Positions 49,836 through 56,015 of a stretch of DNA of 64,000 nucleotides are shown in pieces. The translations under genes and the position numbers were made by a program. The DNA comes from Pirellulales bacterium (GTDB lineage Bacteria > Planctomycetota > Planctomycetia > Pirellulales > JBFWUW01), in contig JBFWUW010000037.1 in NCBI GenBank assembly GCA_050247075.1, forward strand, positions 1-64,000, written 5' to 3'. The first letter of the stretch is position 1; the number at the start of each line of letters is the position of its first letter. Below the pieces are notes generated by a model, which was given only the letters and a program-made list of their open reading frames with translations, did no database searches and was not told the origin of the DNA.

Positions 49836-50867
49836 TTAAAACCGGCGTGGGCCGGCTTGTTGTTCTGGTTCGGGGGCCACAATTTGCGAGGCGAACTCCG
49901 CCTTAAGCTGCTCGGTCAGCCGGTCAGGGCCGAAGGCTTCCACCTGGTTTAATTCGCCGACGGCTTGTCGCGGATAGCCCAGGTATCCGTACAGATAGGC
50001 CAGCAGCAGGCGGGCCTGGGAATCGCGCGGGTTGTCGTCTAGGTACCCTTCTAACGCGCGCAGTTCTTGCTGAAAGAGGCCGCCGTTGGGGTAGATCACG
50101 CGGAAGTTGCGCACCACCTTGCCCCACTCCTGGCTGGCCAAACCGGGCAACGTGCGGCGCAATTCAGCCACTGCTTGTTCGTAGCGTTGCAAGGCGAATA
50201 AGGCTTGCGCGCGCAACAATCCCGCGGCAGCCAATCCAGGCTGCGTGTCGTCAACGCGGTCCATCTCATCCAGCACTGCCTCGTACTGTTGGACGCGAAA
50301 CGCGGCGACGGCGTTTTCCAACTCAGCCGGAACCGCCACGCCGACGGCGGGCCGAGGCATAATCGGATCGGTCGTCGGCCCTGCGACTGGATAGTAACTG
50401 GGCGGCGGCGCGGGACCGTAGTCGGGCGGACGACGGTCGTAGGCGGGACCATAGGTGTAACTGTTGGGGCCAGTCGGCTGAATCTCGTAACCCGCGGGCT
50501 GCTCGACCGGGTTGTCGTAACGATAGCCGTAAATGACTCCTGGCCAGACTGCCCAAGGTTCAAACACGCCATCGCCGTATAGTGTCGGCCCGAGCCCGCC
50601 GGTGATGGTGGGTTGCGTGGGAGAGAATCGCCCGCCCAAACCTGGAGGATCGGCATACAACCAGCGACGATCCGCCAGACCGGCCCGATAGCGAATGTAG
50701 TCTTGTTGGCCAATTTGGCCGGCAATGGCACGCTGGCGCTGGTTTTCGCCCACCTGGGCGGCTTGTTCGCCAGCCGTGATGGAATTAAGCGGGGTTGGTC
50801 CAGGTTGTGCGTATGATTGGCCAACCCACGCCCATGCCAGCAGTGCCACAACGAGGCATCGTTTCAT
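49836..50867 (-). CDS. secreted protein with Pro/Tyr/Gly-rich low-complexity middle region and C-terminal TPR-like helical domain
   Basis: Internal start MKRCLVVALLAWAWVGQSYAQP (signal). ...GYEIQPTGPNSYTYGPAYDRRPPDYGPAPPPSYYPVAGP... C-terminal helical repeats. Confidence 0.5.
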   Translation of the reverse strand: MKRCLVVALLAWAWVGQSYAQPGPTPLNSITAGEQAAQVGENQRQRAIAGQIGQQDYIRYRAGLADRRWLYADPPGLGGRFSPTQPTITGGLGPTLYGDGVFEPWAVWPGVIYGYRYDNPVEQPAGYEIQPTGPNSYTYGPAYDRRPPDYGPAPPPSYYPVAGPTTDPIMPRPAVGVAVPAELENAVAAFRVQQYEAVLDEMDRVDDTQPGLAAAGLLRAQALFALQRYEQAVAELRRTLPGLASQEWGKVVRNFRVIYPNGGLFQQELRALEGYLDDNPRDSQARLLLAYLYGYLGYPRQAVGELNQVEAFGPDRLTEQLKAEFASQIVAPEPEQQAGPRRF

Positions 50868-51033
50868 GGCGTTCCTTCTCCTGCACAAGAATCCGCGGTC
50901 CCCCCGGCCGCTACCCGCATTATACCGCCTGCCGCCGCTGGAGCGAAGAAAATGGAATGCTAGCACCGCAGCCAGTCACTTTGGACGACTGAACTTGACG
51001 TTGGGGGCCAACCGCACGACACTCTCCGCCCGT

Positions 51034-52218
51034 ATGCGCATACTTACCCGATATGTAATCGCCGAGTACTTCAAAGCCTTTTTGCTGACGCTGACCGCGC
51101 TGACCACGTTCATGCTGCTGGTGGGCATCGTCAAACAGGCCTATGAGGAAAGCTTGGGAATTGCGCAGATCCTTCGGATCTTGCCCTTCTTCGTCCCAGA
51201 GGCCTTGCGGTTCTCCATGCCGGGATCGGCCTTGTTTGCCGCCTGCAGCATGTATGGCCGCATGTCGGGGGGCAACGAGATTGTTTCGCTCAAATCGCTG
51301 GGGATCAGCCCTTGGGTGGTGATTTGGCCGGTCTGCCTGATTAACCTCGTGCTTAGCCTGTCCACGGTCTGGCTGAATGACATGGCGGTGACATGGGGCT
51401 TTCACGGTGTACGCCGCGTGGTCTTGGAAGCGATGGACGATATCGCTTACAGCCGGCTGCGGACGCAGCGCTCGTACAGTTCGCCGCAGTTCTCCATCAA
51501 CGTTAAGCGAGTTGAGGGGCGACGGCTGATCCAGACGACGATCAGCTTTCAGGGGCACGGCAATTCGCCCGCAGGCACCATTCAGGCGGAAGAGGCCGAA
51601 TTGGATGTCAACGTGGCCCGCGGCACGTTGGCCATCCGCTGCCGAAACGCCGTAGTCGATTTCATGGGCGAGGCCACGGCACGGCTGCCGGTCATCGAAC
51701 GCGAAATCTCCCTGGTCGAAGCGCACGGCTCGAACAGTGCCGATTCCTTGCCGGCCCGCATGCCGATGAGCGAGCTTCCCGAGAAGGCCGTGGCCGCCGC
51801 CGAAGCTTTGCAAAGCCGGTTGCAACAGTCCGCGGTGAAGGCCGCCTGTATGATGCTCTCGGGAGAGAACCAAACGCTCGTCGGGCAGGAGTGGGCTACG
51901 TTGCAAACGCAGCGGGAATTTCAGTTCAGCCATCTCAGCCGTTTACGGATAGAAGCGCCCAGGCGCTGGGCCAATGGCATGAGTTGCCTGTGCTTCATGT
52001 GGATCGGAGCCCCCATGGCCATCCGGCTGCGGAACTCCGACGTATTGCAGACCATGTTCCGCTGTTTCCTGCCGATCTTGTTCGCGTTTTACCCGTTGTT
52101 GATGATGGGCGTCGACCAAGGCAAACGCGGCGCGCTTCCTCCTTATTGCGTCTGGTCGGGGAATGTGGTGCTGGCGCTGTGGGGCTGCTGGCTGCTGCGC
52201 CGCGTGATGCGGTATTAG
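51034..52218 (+). CDS. LptF/LptG family permease (YjgP/YjgQ)
   Basis: MRILTRYVIAEYFKAFLLTLTALTTFMLLVGIV... is the characteristic N-terminus, with a 6-TM topology and a periplasmic beta-jellyroll insert. Start at the internal ATG 51034. Confidence 0.8.
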   Translation: MRILTRYVIAEYFKAFLLTLTALTTFMLLVGIVKQAYEESLGIAQILRILPFFVPEALRFSMPGSALFAACSMYGRMSGGNEIVSLKSLGISPWVVIWPVCLINLVLSLSTVWLNDMAVTWGFHGVRRVVLEAMDDIAYSRLRTQRSYSSPQFSINVKRVEGRRLIQTTISFQGHGNSPAGTIQAEEAELDVNVARGTLAIRCRNAVVDFMGEATARLPVIEREISLVEAHGSNSADSLPARMPMSELPEKAVAAAEALQSRLQQSAVKAACMMLSGENQTLVGQEWATLQTQREFQFSHLSRLRIEAPRRWANGMSCLCFMWIGAPMAIRLRNSDVLQTMFRCFLPILFAFYPLLMMGVDQGKRGALPPYCVWSGNVVLALWGCWLLRRVMRY

Positions 52219-52254
52219 AAACGGCTCATTCAAGCATGGAAGGCACCGACACGA

Positions 52255-53337
52255 CTACGGTTGCGGCAGAACTTCTGCCGCGGGCTGGGCCAGGTTCTTG
52301 GCGATGCCGGCCAGGTGCGCATCGCTATCTTGCAACATACGGGCAGCTTCTTCTAGAAATGCCGCGGCACGTTGCCGCTGGCCATCGAAGTACAGCTCCA
52401 AGCCAACCAGCAAGATCAGATCACTGCTGTCGGGTTGTTTGTCGGCTGCTTCCGCCAGCGATTCCAGGTGCGACTGTTTGGCGATTTTGAGGTCGCCATA
52501 AAGTTCCGCCAGATCCAGGGCGGCCTCGGCCATGTTAGGTTCCAGCTTCAGCCCGCGTTTGAAGGCCGTGGCGGCAATGGTGTACTCACCCTGGGCGACC
52601 ATCGCCTGGCCCTGCCGAAACCAGGTTTCCGGGACGTCGGGCGCGGCCTCGGATGCGTTCTTGTAGCGCTGGTTCGCCTGGCGAAACTCTTGCTTGACGA
52701 AATACTTGTCGCCGAGATTGATCCACCGCCAGGCCCGACTGACCGACTCAGGATTCGAGACACGCACCTTGGGCCTGCCTGCCGGTTTGTCTCGCGGTAG
52801 CGCCGCTTGGGGCAGGTTGATTACATTCACCTGGGGCGGCGGCGGATTGACACCCAGCCCCTCGGGGTTCCACAACCCTTGCAGATTCGGTCCCCATAGT
52901 TCATTGGCCGAATAGATCGCCGGACGGCCAAAGTAATACGAATAATTGGAATAGCCAAAAGGATAGCCCGCGCCGATACCGTAAGGATAGCCGTAACCGT
53001 ACCCGCCGTAATACGGTACAGGTCCGATCGTTCCGAAAAAGGCCCCATAGCCAGGCCCGCCATAATAGCCCGGTCCGCTACCGTAATAGCCGGTGCCGGA
53101 CGAATAATAGCCACTGTTGCCGCCGCTGTAGTACAGGCCGCCAAACCTGCGCCCGTTATTGGGGAGAAAATCGGCGTACCGGCGGGACGACGGATCGTGA
53201 ACCTCGGCCTGGCTGTAGCCCGGCACGATCTGGTCGCCCAACGTGCGGCGTCCGCGCTGGGCGGCAGCTTCGCGCGTTATGGCACCGCTAACCGCTACCA
53301 CAAATAACGCCAACAGCAAGCGACTGGCAAGCGACAT
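52255..53337 (-). CDS. secreted protein with Gly/Tyr-rich low-complexity region and C-terminal TPR-like domain
   Basis: Start MSLASRLLLALFVVAVSGAITREAAAQ (signal). ..GGLYYSGGNSGYYSSGTGYYGSGPGYYGGPGYGAFFG..YYGGYGYGYPYGIGAGYPFGYSNYSYYFG.. C-terminal helical repeats. Confidence 0.5.
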   Translation of the reverse strand: MSLASRLLLALFVVAVSGAITREAAAQRGRRTLGDQIVPGYSQAEVHDPSSRRYADFLPNNGRRFGGLYYSGGNSGYYSSGTGYYGSGPGYYGGPGYGAFFGTIGPVPYYGGYGYGYPYGIGAGYPFGYSNYSYYFGRPAIYSANELWGPNLQGLWNPEGLGVNPPPPQVNVINLPQAALPRDKPAGRPKVRVSNPESVSRAWRWINLGDKYFVKQEFRQANQRYKNASEAAPDVPETWFRQGQAMVAQGEYTIAATAFKRGLKLEPNMAEAALDLAELYGDLKIAKQSHLESLAEAADKQPDSSDLILLVGLELYFDGQRQRAAAFLEEAARMLQDSDAHLAGIAKNLAQPAAEVLPQP

Positions 53338-53415
53338 GGCAAAACCCTCCATCTCCGGTTCCGGCCGAGAAATGCTCCAGGTCTTATTATCACCTGAATC
53401 GGGCCATCCGGCAAA

Positions 53416-53474
53416 TCTTGTAGCAGGCGATTTCTTGTAGGAGGCGATTTCTTGTAGGAGGCGATTCCATCGCC
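53416..53474 (+). repeat. three tandem 17-nt repeats tcttgtag(c/g)aggcgatt ending in the palindrome GGCGATTCCATCGCC (variant of the GTAGGAGG-palindrome element)
   Basis: atcttgtagcaggcgatt-tcttgtaggaggcgatt-tcttgtaggaggcgatt-ccatcgcc, upstream of the GY-rich protein gene but written on the opposite strand. Confidence 0.7.
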
Positions 53475-53665
53475 GACAAGCCATGTACTGCCTGGACAGC
53501 GCAATGCTCGCCTGTTGGCCGCTGTAATCGGCCCGCTGCGACTGTTGCGTGGAAATCAGGCTTACGTGGGCTGAAGCCCACGCCACGGTCGCCTTCCGCG
53601 GGCATGCCAAATAAACGCGGGAGAGCGCCATTAGCGACGCTCCCCCGCTTCATACGCCACGACTG

Positions 53666-53866
53666 CTATTGAGCGCAGGCGCACCCAACGCATGCGCATA
53701 CGTCACAGGTGCAGAACAGGCCGTTGCAATCGGGGCAGTGGCATTCCACGCAGCCGCAACAGGTACTGGCCCGCGGGGCCGATGGCGTTGGCCTGGCATA
53801 CGACAGGGCAGCCATCGACACGACAACCGCTGCCAACAGCAGCGCGAACTTCGAGAGACGCTTCAT
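53666..53866 (-). CDS. small secreted cysteine-rich peptide (66 aa; 13 Cys in a 42-aa mature part)
   Basis: MKRLSKFALLLAAVVVSMAALSYA|RPTPSAPRASTCCGCVECHCPDCNGLFCTCDVCACVGCACAQ. Signal peptide, AGGA 8 nt upstream, GC3-rich coding bias. Confidence 0.5.
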   Translation of the reverse strand: MKRLSKFALLLAAVVVSMAALSYARPTPSAPRASTCCGCVECHCPDCNGLFCTCDVCACVGCACAQ

Positions 53867-53933: not shown

Positions 53934-54365
53934 TCATTTCAACCAGATGCAGAAAAGCGCCAGCAATTTCGGACCAGCTCGCGAAGGTCGTTCCTCGGCC
54001 CGATCGAAATACTCGGCGGAAGAGAATGCGGAAAGGCTAGCCGCCGGAAAAACAGCCCAGCCCGCCAACTGCCGTTTGACGGCGGACAAGTCGAATAGTT
54101 CTCGCACGATGGGAGCCAGCGGAGGGGTGTGCTGGCAACAACAGCAAGTCCGGTCCAACAGTGCCGCGCCCCTGGCTGGCTGTTTCTTGGCGCAACAAGC
54201 ATGTTTCGGGCGGGCAGCATCCCCGGCCATGGAATGCGAACAGCAAGCCCGCTCGGGGCCGGCCCGCCTTGCACAACAGCACGGCCTAGCCACCGCCGCG
54301 ATCGGATTGACCGCCACGGCCAGCAACGTAATAAGAGCGACGATGGATCGAAGCGCTTTCATCAC
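53934..54365 (-). CDS. small secreted cysteine-rich protein with CC/CCC/CCCC clusters (C-terminal extent uncertain)
   Basis: MMKALRSIVALITLLAVAVNPIAAVA|RPCCCARRAGPERACCSHSMAGDAARPKHACCAKKQPARGAALLDRTCCCCQH... Signal peptide and the same A|RP junction as the neighbour. Confidence 0.45.
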   Translation of the reverse strand: MMKALRSIVALITLLAVAVNPIAAVARPCCCARRAGPERACCSHSMAGDAARPKHACCAKKQPARGAALLDRTCCCCQHTPPLAPIVRELFDLSAVKRQLAGWAVFPAASLSAFSSAEYFDRAEERPSRAGPKLLALFCIWLK

Positions 54366-54560: not shown

Positions 54561-56015
54561 TCAACCACGGATCTCCGGCACGATGCTGCCTTCATTCACC
54601 GTGGGACGTTCGGGCCGGCCTTGATGGTGGTAGAGCAACCGGGTGTGATCGAGGCCAAGCAAATCAAGAATCGACGCGTGCAAGTCGTGGACGTGGATGC
54701 GGTTCTCCACCGCTTTCAAGCCAAAGTCGTCGGTCGCGCCAATCACGCGGCCGCCGCGAACTCCGCCCCCGGCCAGCCACATGGTAAAACCGTAAGGGTT
54801 GTGGTCGCGGCCGTCCCCTTTTTCGGACATCGGCGTGCGGCCGAACTCGCCCCCCCAGATCACCAGGGTGGAATCAAGCAGCCCGCGGGCTTTCAGATCG
54901 GCCAGCAGAGCGGCAATCGGCCGGTCGGTGGCTTGGCAAAGTTGGCCGTGGTTTTCCTCAATTTTGCTGTGGGCATCCCAGCGGCTGCCAGATCCGCCGT
55001 AAAGTTGCACGAAGCGCACGCCGCGTTCCACTAGCCGTCTGGCCAACAGACAATTGCGGCCAAACGCGGCGGTGGCCGGTTTGTCGATGCCATAGGCCGT
55101 TTGTGTGGCGGCGGTTTCTTGGGCCAAATCGACGGTCTCCGGTGCCTCGGCCTGCATGCGAAAGGCGAGTTCGTAGGAAGCAATGCGGGCCTCTAGTTCG
55201 CTATCACCAGGACGGTCTTGCGCATGCTGTCGATTGAGATGGGCGATGAAGTCAAGCTTGCGGCGTTGTTGCGAATCGGCCACTTGTTCTGGCGGTGCCA
55301 GGTGCAAAATGGGCCGCGGACCAGCCAAAAACCTGGTCCCTTGGTAGGTGGAAGGCATAAAACCGGTGCCCCACACGCGGCTGCCGCCGGGCGGCTCGCG
55401 GTCGCCATCCAGCAGCACCACGAACGACGGCAAATTCTGGCTCTCCGACCCCAGCCCATAGGTCACCCACGATCCCAAACTGGGCCGGCCCGCCAGGATA
55501 CTGCCGGTGTTCATCTGGCAAACGCTGCCGACATGGTTCAGGCCGTTGGCCCAACAAGACCGCACCACGGCGATATCGTCGATGCAGCGCCCAACGTGCG
55601 GGTACCAGTCGGATACTTCAATCCCGCTTTGGCCGTGGCGGGTCCACGTTCGCTTCGTCGGCAAGATGGGATTTTCGGAGACACCCATCGGCGTCAACAC
55701 ACGCTCGATCGAAGCCGGCAATGGTTGGCCGGCCAGTTCGTTGACTTTGGGTTTGTGGTCGAACGTATCCAGGTGGCTTGGCCCGCCATCCATAAACAAG
55801 AAAATCACGCTCCGCGCAGTCGCCCCATGATGGCCGGCCCGCGGCGCCAAGGGAGAAGTTGCCTGGGAATCGTCGGCGGCAACAGGTGACGGCTCGACCG
55901 ACTCGGCCAACAACGCCGCCAGCGCCAAGACACCGAATCCTCCGCCGGCCCGAGTTAAGAAATCGCGGCGGTGGCTGAAAGAGGCGAGCGGCAATGGCTG
56001 ACGGTCAATCGACAT
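54561..56015 (-). CDS. DUF1501 family protein (Tat-signal, sulfatase-like fold)
   Basis: RRDFLTRAGGGFGVLALAAL Tat motif and conserved DUF1501 blocks. Overlaps the start region of the DUF1549/1553 gene, the classic pairing. Confidence 0.85.
   Translation of the reverse strand: MSIDRQPLPLASFSHRRDFLTRAGGGFGVLALAALLAESVEPSPVAADDSQATSPLAPRAGHHGATARSVIFLFMDGGPSHLDTFDHKPKVNELAGQPLPASIERVLTPMGVSENPILPTKRTWTRHGQSGIEVSDWYPHVGRCIDDIAVVRSCWANGLNHVGSVCQMNTGSILAGRPSLGSWVTYGLGSESQNLPSFVVLLDGDREPPGGSRVWGTGFMPSTYQGTRFLAGPRPILHLAPPEQVADSQQRRKLDFIAHLNRQHAQDRPGDSELEARIASYELAFRMQAEAPETVDLAQETAATQTAYGIDKPATAAFGRNCLLARRLVERGVRFVQLYGGSGSRWDAHSKIEENHGQLCQATDRPIAALLADLKARGLLDSTLVIWGGEFGRTPMSEKGDGRDHNPYGFTMWLAGGGVRGGRVIGATDDFGLKAVENRIHVHDLHASILDLLGLDHTRLLYHHQGRPERPTVNEGSIVPEIRG

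Follow-up and report, generated by a model that had tools for sequence, protein, structure and literature searches.

Tetratricopeptide repeat (TPR) proteins (Pfam clan CL0020) are built of canonical helical hairpins, and among the exported ones CpoB combines a non-TPR N-terminal part with a C-terminal TPR domain. Cohesive disordered domains rich in Tyr and Gly or in Phe and Gly are familiar above all from the pores, condensates and biomaterials of eukaryotes, and the bacterial condensate-forming proteins described so far are, to our knowledge, cytoplasmic. Two described systems are relevant here: PEX13 has a YG domain, rich in Tyr and Gly, which forms a hydrogel-like conduit or selective phase, and in PEX5 a disordered N-half carrying aromatic motifs is joined to a C-terminal TPR domain, the ligand of which is a C-terminal peptide (PMC12173945). 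In this work we analysed two genes, termed A and B, located in a stretch of 64,000 nucleotides from a Pirellulales bacterium (assembly GCA_050247075.1, contig JBFWUW010000037.1, positions 1 to 64,000; hereafter the window), the products of which are exported and join a Gly/Tyr-rich (B) or Pro/Tyr-rich (A) region to a C-terminal TPR tail. Very probably they represent a large, uncharacterised planctomycete protein family that is restricted to the Pirellulales, has this architecture, and has no link to the Lpt system of lipopolysaccharide (LPS) transport.

The Gly/Tyr core of B shares with the PEX13 YG domain and with FG-nucleoporins a long, uncharged, disordered segment rich in Tyr or Phe and Gly, but there is no homology between them, and B is a Sec-exported protein lacking a membrane anchor or an SH3 domain. 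With PEX5, the family has in common a disordered aromatic N-half and a TPR C-half, and a C-terminal dipeptide present in the family would be a possible TPR ligand; however, the similarity is that of generic TPRs, and the two belong to different compartments and different domains of life, so that the analogy is purely architectural. Animal high-Gly/Tyr proteins (keratin-associated high-glycine/tyrosine proteins, mollusc shell KRMP and silk-like proteins) resemble the B core in composition, but they possess no TPR, are not homologous to B, and make up extracellular solid material; the matches to 'GY-rich' in the literature were eukaryotic materials throughout. The likeness to eukaryotic phase-forming YG/FG sequences, pointed out for the B core in a first-pass annotation of this DNA, can be regarded as a fair compositional analogy.

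Architecture of the B protein and of its family

The B product begins with a signal peptide of the Sec type (assigned by inspection, as was that of A) whose cleavage site, between AAA and Q, fits the hydrophobic N-termini and AxA sites of the homologues. As no lipobox Cys is present, a lipoprotein was ruled out. The signal peptide is followed by a linear motif, VPGxxQxxxHxPxSxxYxDxxP, of which residues P39, G40, Q43, H47, S51, D56 and P59 are invariant in a 9-sequence alignment (A3), and which is also found in alignment A1. Next comes the Gly/Tyr core, where residues 65-137 form a stretch of 73 amino acids containing not a single D, E, K or R, but 25 G, 20 Y, 7 S, 6 P and 5 F; Tyr and Phe account for 34% of it, and aromatic residues are spaced 1-8 positions apart. 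The best 50-residue segment of B reaches 70% Gly plus Tyr/Phe/Trp/His, as compared to a mean of 27% (standard deviation 8%) for the 202 open reading frames (ORFs) of the window, that is, more than 5 standard deviations above it. At the DNA level, Tandem Repeats Finder detected no tandem repeat in the core beyond a 1.9-copy 12-mer. The compositional and repeat analysis suggested at first pass has thus revealed an extreme composition and no DNA repeat, the core being a compositional bias rather than a repeat array. An AlphaFold2 (AF2) model based on a 20-sequence alignment gave predicted local distance difference test (pLDDT) values below 50 across residues 58-138, which are accordingly modelled as disordered, and showed neither coiled coil nor beta structure; in the absence of the latter, an outer-membrane beta-barrel was ruled out.

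Immediately after the core lies a second motif, with the family consensus P..IPAE.LYGP.A...F.G, present in most family members; its first residue in B, P139, is invariant, and the model shows two short helices at a pLDDT of about 70. The tail, which is reached through a Pro-rich linker, scores above the Pfam cutoffs for TPR_2 (39.2 bits; cutoff 27), TPR_11 (32.3; 26.8) and TPR_14 (27.5; 23.5). Residues 190-350 are modelled with pLDDT above 90 as helical hairpins comprising 8-9 helices. By profile search the tail resembles consensus TPR proteins of the PDB, and Foldseek against the PDB returned CTPR, OGT, MamA and Tom70; sequence and fold searches of this database thus yielded generic or designed TPRs only, with no specific functional relative. 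No transmembrane segment was found in B beyond the cleavable signal peptide; PEP-CTERM-type sorting was ruled out, a C-terminal transmembrane helix being absent, and the protein ends in -LPQP.

In NCBIfam, the generic TPR matches to MamA (34 bits against a threshold of 200), PilW (25 against 154), LapB (21 against 363) and YbgF (19 against 90) all remained sub-threshold, as did that to PrsT, and membership of these groups was rejected. Identity with CpoB/YbgF was likewise discarded, given the TIGR02795 score of 19 against 90 bits, the lack of a coiled coil in B, and the absence of tol-pal genes from the neighbourhoods. The family tail differs from generic TPR adaptors in having an insert of its own and the signatures FRQGQA and LYFDGQ. 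Moreover, we know of no named member of the matched TPR groups (MamA, PilF/PilW, CpoB/YbgF, LapB) that carries a charge-free Gly/Tyr region.

Both A and B are real coding genes. Identical proteins of 360 and 343 amino acids were called independently on contigs of three separate assemblies (GCA_050184935.1, another one from NCBI, and one made by Logan from SRR27751815), the genes being arranged in each as DUF1501, Cys-peptide, B, LptF/G, A and DUF900. The frames run through the low-complexity sequence into the conserved tail and N-terminal motif, unbroken in dozens of homologues, and the G+C content at third codon positions (0.67-0.70) is similar to that of the adjacent genes. It is true that high-GC DNA (the window has about 61% G+C) gives many long spurious ORFs, and that one relative, P0039, appears frameshifted. 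However, as the products are identical in three assemblies, the frames are kept in homologues, the third-position composition is coding-like and the core is devoid of a DNA tandem repeat, we consider it next to certain that the low-complexity frames are not non-coding, frameshifted or mis-assembled, an outcome which the first-pass annotation had named as one that would undo it. The longest A and B ORFs run further upstream than the starts at 50867 and 53337, respectively; these starts were preferred because both ATG codons are preceded by Shine-Dalgarno-like, GGAG-rich purine runs, fit the homologue N-termini, and were chosen identically by independent gene callers. As for P0039 itself (NCBI, 306 amino acids, on a 19-kb contig), its Gly/Tyr core is recognisable (GGLYFSGGNGGYFFSG...YSYYFGRPAIYSANELWG) while its N-terminus and tail are scrambled; the entry seems to be a gene call broken by a frameshift, which would reflect either a pseudogene or an error in the sequence of a related metagenome-assembled genome (MAG).

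A word-indexed search identified 41 homologues of B, and an exhaustive HMMER search with the B profile, covering 1.84 billion cluster representatives, found 987 clusters at E<=1e-30. The best 150 of the HMMER matches are all 210-440 amino acids long and score at least 248 bits; at E<=1e-3 there were 77,661 matches, the weaker ones being generic TPR proteins. The tail profile, which includes both signatures, spans about 145 positions. Among the 171 full-length members, 154 have a signal-peptide-like N-terminus or h-region; the regions preceding the tail contain 15.7% G, 10.1% Y and 13.1% P, against 7.0, 4.0 and 3.1% in the tails; and the median best 50-residue segment has 60% Gly plus aromatic residues or His, the value being at least 50% in 140 of them. 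The Gly/aromatic composition is thus family-wide in some 170 full-length representatives, which disposes of the idea that the Gly/Tyr core is a lineage-specific insertion in an ordinary TPR protein. Similarly, the view that such sequences are unusual in bacterial secretomes requires qualification, since within the Pirellulales the family is large.

Nothing was recognised by Pfam in the N-terminal regions of 20 family members. The core region, in which any two sequences have only about 44 of the 174 alignment columns in common, varies in both length and sequence, whereas the tail has 154 of its 164 columns aligned per pair, at a mean pairwise identity of 45%; it follows that the composition of the core, and not its sequence, appears to be under selection. 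According to the subgroup, the core comes in GYG, GWG/RGY, HG-rich or Cys-containing flavours. In one Pirellulales homologue of 437 amino acids (locus L010, 6269..7582), the aromatic core has in large part given way to a Gln/Pro repeat (QQIAPQQIAPPPIAPQQIAP...), with retention of the tail and of the motif FGPGAVQQFMG, indicating that the disordered region can change its compositional flavour. At the other end of the protein, 81 of 184 members terminate in [ED][ILVFMA]-COOH, often as -G[AVT][ED][IL], ...S.G[AT][ED]I or ...PGVEL. This ending, seen for example in P0023, P0028, P0032, P0033, P0035 and P0041, might be recognised by a TPR or PDZ domain, or it might mark the protein for sorting or proteolysis.

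The taxonomic range was read from source names. All members with a named organism are MAGs of Pirellulales, Pirellulaceae or Planctomycetia; no cultured organism figures among them, no systematic search of isolates having been made. A locus search with the 9-sequence alignment identified 4 genome loci, and the same alignment gave no match in metagenome contigs. The single weak match in Acidobacteriota (28% identity) is probably generic TPR similarity. Already known are the TPR domain, which is an ordinary one, and the label 'tetratricopeptide repeat protein'; the database entries 100% identical to B and A (P0001 and P0044, respectively) are annotated 'MAG: tetratricopeptide repeat protein [Pirellulales bacterium]'. 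Full-text literature searches turned up no account of Gly/Tyr-rich TPR proteins exported by bacteria, and the clade-restricted family with its specific tail, the family-wide Gly/aromatic disordered region, and the motifs that flank this region or form the C-terminus seem to be new to the literature. The profile and motifs permit annotation of the family in place of the present uninformative label.

Gene A and its kinship to gene B

The first-pass annotation had described A and B as paralogous secreted proteins, each with an aromatic low-complexity core and a TPR-like tail. The common order of signal peptide, aromatic Gly- or Pro-rich region and TPR tail holds for both genes. The A signal peptide, MKRCLVVALLAWAWVGQSYA, is followed by Q (cleavage between SYA and Q). 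The N-terminal region of A contains 16% P, 14% G and 9% Y, together with charged residues, and has pLDDT values below 50 in an AF2 model based on a 7-sequence alignment. A word-indexed search found 6 homologues of A. The close ones (P0045-P0048) are 43-66% identical to it over the whole protein, and the Pro/Tyr region is conserved among them, with 40-66% identity in the closest homologues. Judged from these sequences, this region is a compositionally biased conserved sequence and not true low complexity, so that low-complexity cores apply to B, with its charge-free 73 residues, and not to A. In the distant A-like relatives P0049, P0050 and P0062, the place of the Pro/Tyr sequence of A is taken by low complexity of the Gly/Tyr/Trp/His type. 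Proteins of the A family (P0044-P0048) end in -GPR[RKE]F.

The tail of A (residues 181-330; pLDDT 80-94) is borderline in Pfam, with 24.9 bits for TPR_19 against a cutoff of 25. BLASTP detected no similarity between A and B (E=4). In contrast, hhalign aligned the two families over the whole tail (133 columns, 98.3% probability, E 2e-14), and a tblastn search with A matched the tail of the B-family member P0009 (E 3e-5). When run over all window ORFs, a hidden Markov model of the B tail had just two matches, B itself (213 bits) and A (26 bits, E 9e-8), and did not detect the window's other two TPR genes, which lie at 43.8-47.6 kb. The AF2 models of A and B, with 8-9 helices in the tail of each, also have the same helix order, namely two TPRs, then a short insert and a long helix, and finally three helices. 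Kinship as paralogs can therefore be upheld for tails and architecture, though not for the cores, and by the scores of the B-tail profile (26 against 213 bits) A is a member of a distant sister family of the B family.

A proposed role in the periplasm

As both proteins are Sec-exported and non-lipidated, a soluble periplasmic location is probable. Based on the above, we tentatively propose, at a probability of about 0.45 with the mechanism included, that A and B, distantly related to each other, belong to a Pirellulales-restricted superfamily whose members, once exported, would act as soluble periplasmic adaptors or scaffolds. The tail, of about 150 residues, would be a specific docking module accepting a short linear peptide in its concave groove. 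Peptide docking is suggested by the residues D210, Q216, R241 and Q244, which are polar, occupy helix-A positions, and are invariant or near-invariant in the B family; TPR helix-A positions usually line the peptide-binding groove. Structural consensus TPR residues (G209, F213, A221, Y225, A228 and P233) are conserved in the B family as well. Candidate ligands would be the P..IPAE.LYGP post-core motif, the C-terminal [ED][ILF]-COOH ending (about 44% of members), or a partner protein, and docking of the protein's own motif might lead to autoinhibition or to head-to-tail assembly. The uncharged Tyr/Gly region could provide multivalent weak aromatic contacts, resulting in self-association or in adhesion to envelope polymers; in this way a meshwork or scaffold held together by many such contacts would arise in the spacious periplasm of planctomycetes. 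If so, the family offers a testable entry to the organisation of this unusually large compartment, and it bears on whether phase-like assemblies occur outside the bacterial cytoplasm.

Several points weigh against such a role. All named members are from uncultured MAGs, and the signal peptides were judged by eye. The prolyl-tRNA synthetase (ProRS) and AP_endonuc_2 genes that adjoin family genes in other genomes are housekeeping genes, so the neighbourhood gives no functional clue. Gene B of the window lacks the C-terminal [ED][ILF] motif, and one mechanism may fail to fit both genes, as the A N-terminal region is not low complexity. The regions of low pLDDT, predicted by AF2 from 7-20 sequences, may fold as amyloid or upon binding a partner, and His-rich or Cys-containing members hint at other chemistries.

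The length and sequence of the disordered region are highly variable, a few members are Q/P- or S-rich or weakly aromatic (the L010 homologue and the lowest-scoring members), and the tail is the sole well-conserved part. These features would also suit a periplasmic TPR adaptor or chaperone with a layout like that of CpoB/YbgF or PilF, in which the disordered region is an entropic linker and its Gly/Tyr/Pro bias results from selection for flexibility and protease resistance, without self-association. However, what predominates in usual spacers is Pro, Ala, Ser, Thr or charged residues, unlike in a region with 10% Tyr and zero charge; aromatic enrichment is found in 140 of 171 members; and conserved linear motifs lie on both sides of the core. 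We therefore regard an inert spacer as possible but unlikely.

Somewhat less likely again is a structural role, with the protein secreted as a functional amyloid, as a matrix cross-linked through Tyr, or as part of an adhesive or holdfast, and with the core turning into an insoluble solid, with Tyr-rich spore-coat and eggshell proteins and mussel adhesives as analogues. A stretch of 73 uncharged residues with 34% Tyr and Phe is so aromatic as to be aggregation-prone, and Planctomycetes attach by holdfasts and for a long time were described as having protein-rich walls. Against this, there is no repeat unit, no predicted beta-solenoid and no recognisable outer-membrane export signal; no amyloid-export, peroxidase or laccase gene was seen in the neighbourhoods examined; and a TPR tail is atypical of matrix proteins. 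As regards functional amyloids of the curli CsgA or Fap type in particular, the candidate was rejected, in the absence of DNA repeats, of predicted beta structure, and of csg- or fap-like genes nearby.

By analogy with the eukaryotic systems, the family might constitute a Tyr/Gly cohesive phase (a hydrogel or condensate) in the enlarged periplasm or in envelope pores (crateriform structures), with the TPR tails recruiting clients through C-terminal or linear motifs. This is a long shot, for which composition, architecture and conservation speak; were it true, bacteria would possess, outside the cytoplasm, a counterpart of the PEX13-YG/PEX5-TPR or FG-nucleoporin principle, which would be highly interesting. 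Capture of Ni, Cu, Zn or Fe by His/Gly/Tyr/Cys-rich regions, with the TPR tail passing on the metal, has in its favour the HGHGGY, HHGGH or CGW runs of P0002, P0006, P0007, P0026, P0027, P0050 and P0062 and the Cys-rich exported peptides encoded next to B in the window, but seems to us improbable: His makes up about 1% of the B core, from which Cys is absent, family N-terminal regions average 2.9% His and 0.7% Cys, and metal transporters or chaperones do not recur in the neighbourhoods. An adaptor or scaffold remains the role that we favour.

Gene neighbourhood and the LptF/G permease gene

The coordinates of A, B and the surrounding features are compiled in the table below. Between A and B lies a gene of the LptF/G permease family, as had been stated at first pass; its description there as an outer-membrane component has to be amended, since LptF and LptG are inner-membrane components of LptB2FG. 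Its product stays below the NCBIfam equivalog thresholds for both LptF (TIGR04407, 78 against 230) and LptG (TIGR04408, 70 against 240), and neither a partner permease gene nor an LptB gene was found beside it.

Features of genes A and B and of their surroundings in the window (lengths and residue numbers refer to the encoded proteins)
Feature	Position	Strand	Description
Gene A	49836..50867	-	343 aa (ORF list); exported, Pro/Tyr/Gly-rich, with related TPR tail; identical to P0044
A signal peptide	50808..50867	-	Residues 1-20
A N-terminal region	50328..50807	-	Residues 21-180; Pro/Tyr-rich stretch 96-170
A TPR-like tail	49878..50327	-	Residues 181-330; homologous to B tail
LptF/G-family permease gene	51034..52218	+	PF03739, E 5e-44, 151 bits (cutoff 27.9)
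Gene B	52255..53337	-	360 aa (ORF list); exported, Gly/Tyr-rich, with TPR tail; identical to P0001
B signal peptide	53260..53337	-	Residues 1-26; Sec type by inspection
B N-terminal linear motif	53152..53259	-	Residues 27-62
B Gly/Tyr core	52924..53151	-	Residues 63-138; charge-free stretch 65-137
B post-core motif	52828..52923	-	Residues 139-170
B Pro-rich linker	52756..52827	-	Residues 171-194; pLDDT 52-63; length variable, gappy in alignment A1
B TPR tail	52288..52755	-	Residues 195-350; two canonical TPRs, short insert, four further helices
Putative B promoter region	53386..53466	-	17-bp tandem repeat, 3 copies (53416..53466), abutting sigma70-like -35/-10 site (53414..53386)
Terminator-like hairpin	53617..53648	-	Strong; 14-bp stem with 10 GC pairs, T-rich tail; 18 nt past the Cys-peptide gene stop
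Cys-rich peptide gene	53666..53866	-	66 aa; signal peptide, then CCGCVECHCPDCNGLFCTCDVCACVGCACAQ
Second Cys-rich exported protein	53934..54365	-	143 aa; CCC, CC and CCCC clusters
DUF1501 gene	54561..56015	-	

Gene A is divergent from the LptF/G gene, with a gap of 166 bp, and B is convergent with it, with 36 bp between the stop codons. Owing to these orientations the three do not form an operon, and they are three separate transcription units. As the terminator-like hairpin and the promoter-like site separate the Cys-peptide gene from B, there would be at least four units in all. Furthermore, in other organisms, the 6-8 kb flanks of 12 B-family loci are free of LptF/G genes, Cys-peptide homologues and A-type genes, and neither of 2 A-family loci has a B-type or an LptF/G gene. 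The small envelope-assembly locus proposed at first pass is therefore not sustained, the adjacency of A and B to the LptF/G and Cys-rich peptide genes being fortuitous.

This applies in particular to the reading that A, B, LptF/G and the Cys-rich peptides are encoded together so as to serve envelope or LPS assembly, with the Gly/Tyr proteins as structural partners of Lpt. The genes are physically adjacent in all three assemblies, TPR proteins such as LapB and BamD are established actors in envelope biogenesis, and the family shows generic TPR similarity to LapB in NCBIfam; yet that similarity is of 21 bits against a cutoff of 363, and gene orientation, the terminator and promoter-like sequences upstream of B, and the lack of any LptF/G, Cys-peptide or A/B pairing in the 12 B- and 2 A-family loci all argue to the contrary. 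Partnership with Lpt, largely refuted by synteny, is thus highly improbable, and a link to LPS transport can be set aside as a false lead.

Other B-family loci present a different recurrent neighbourhood. In 7 of the 12 (L002, L005, L007, L010, L015, L016 and L020), the family gene lies directly downstream of ProRS and/or AP_endonuc_2, the latter encoding a xylose-isomerase-like TIM barrel of 273 amino acids, and UbiA, UbiX, UbiE or UbiD is often encountered further upstream. These neighbours are 64-78% identical between loci, compared with 30-45% for the family protein, so that the synteny seems to reflect an ancient arrangement of housekeeping genes, in the midst of which one gene evolves rapidly; a functional link was rejected, this being judged a conserved order and not a functional operon. 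No homologue of ProRS or AP_endonuc_2 was found in the window, where the family gene accordingly has another setting.

The two Cys-rich exported proteins encoded next to B have no Pfam or NCBIfam match, and no homologue of either was found near other family loci; they may be metal-binding peptides or resemble ribosomally synthesised and post-translationally modified peptides. A DUF1501 gene occurs within a few kb of the A-type gene in the window and in both of the other A-family loci (L008, 1084..2310; L009, 8310..9647). DUF1501 is very abundant in Planctomycetes, and this proximity may therefore be due to chance.

Upstream of B, the near-perfect 17-bp repeat (unit AATCGCCTCCTACAAGA; Tandem Repeats Finder score 95) is located 79-130 nt before the start codon, next to a sigma70-like site identified by consensus match only. 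An Rfam scan of the 47-56 kb interval, this repeat included, gave no match, so that the repeat does not correspond to a known RNA. The 17-bp unit is present in 3 copies in the window as against 0.03 expected and may be the binding site of a regulator.

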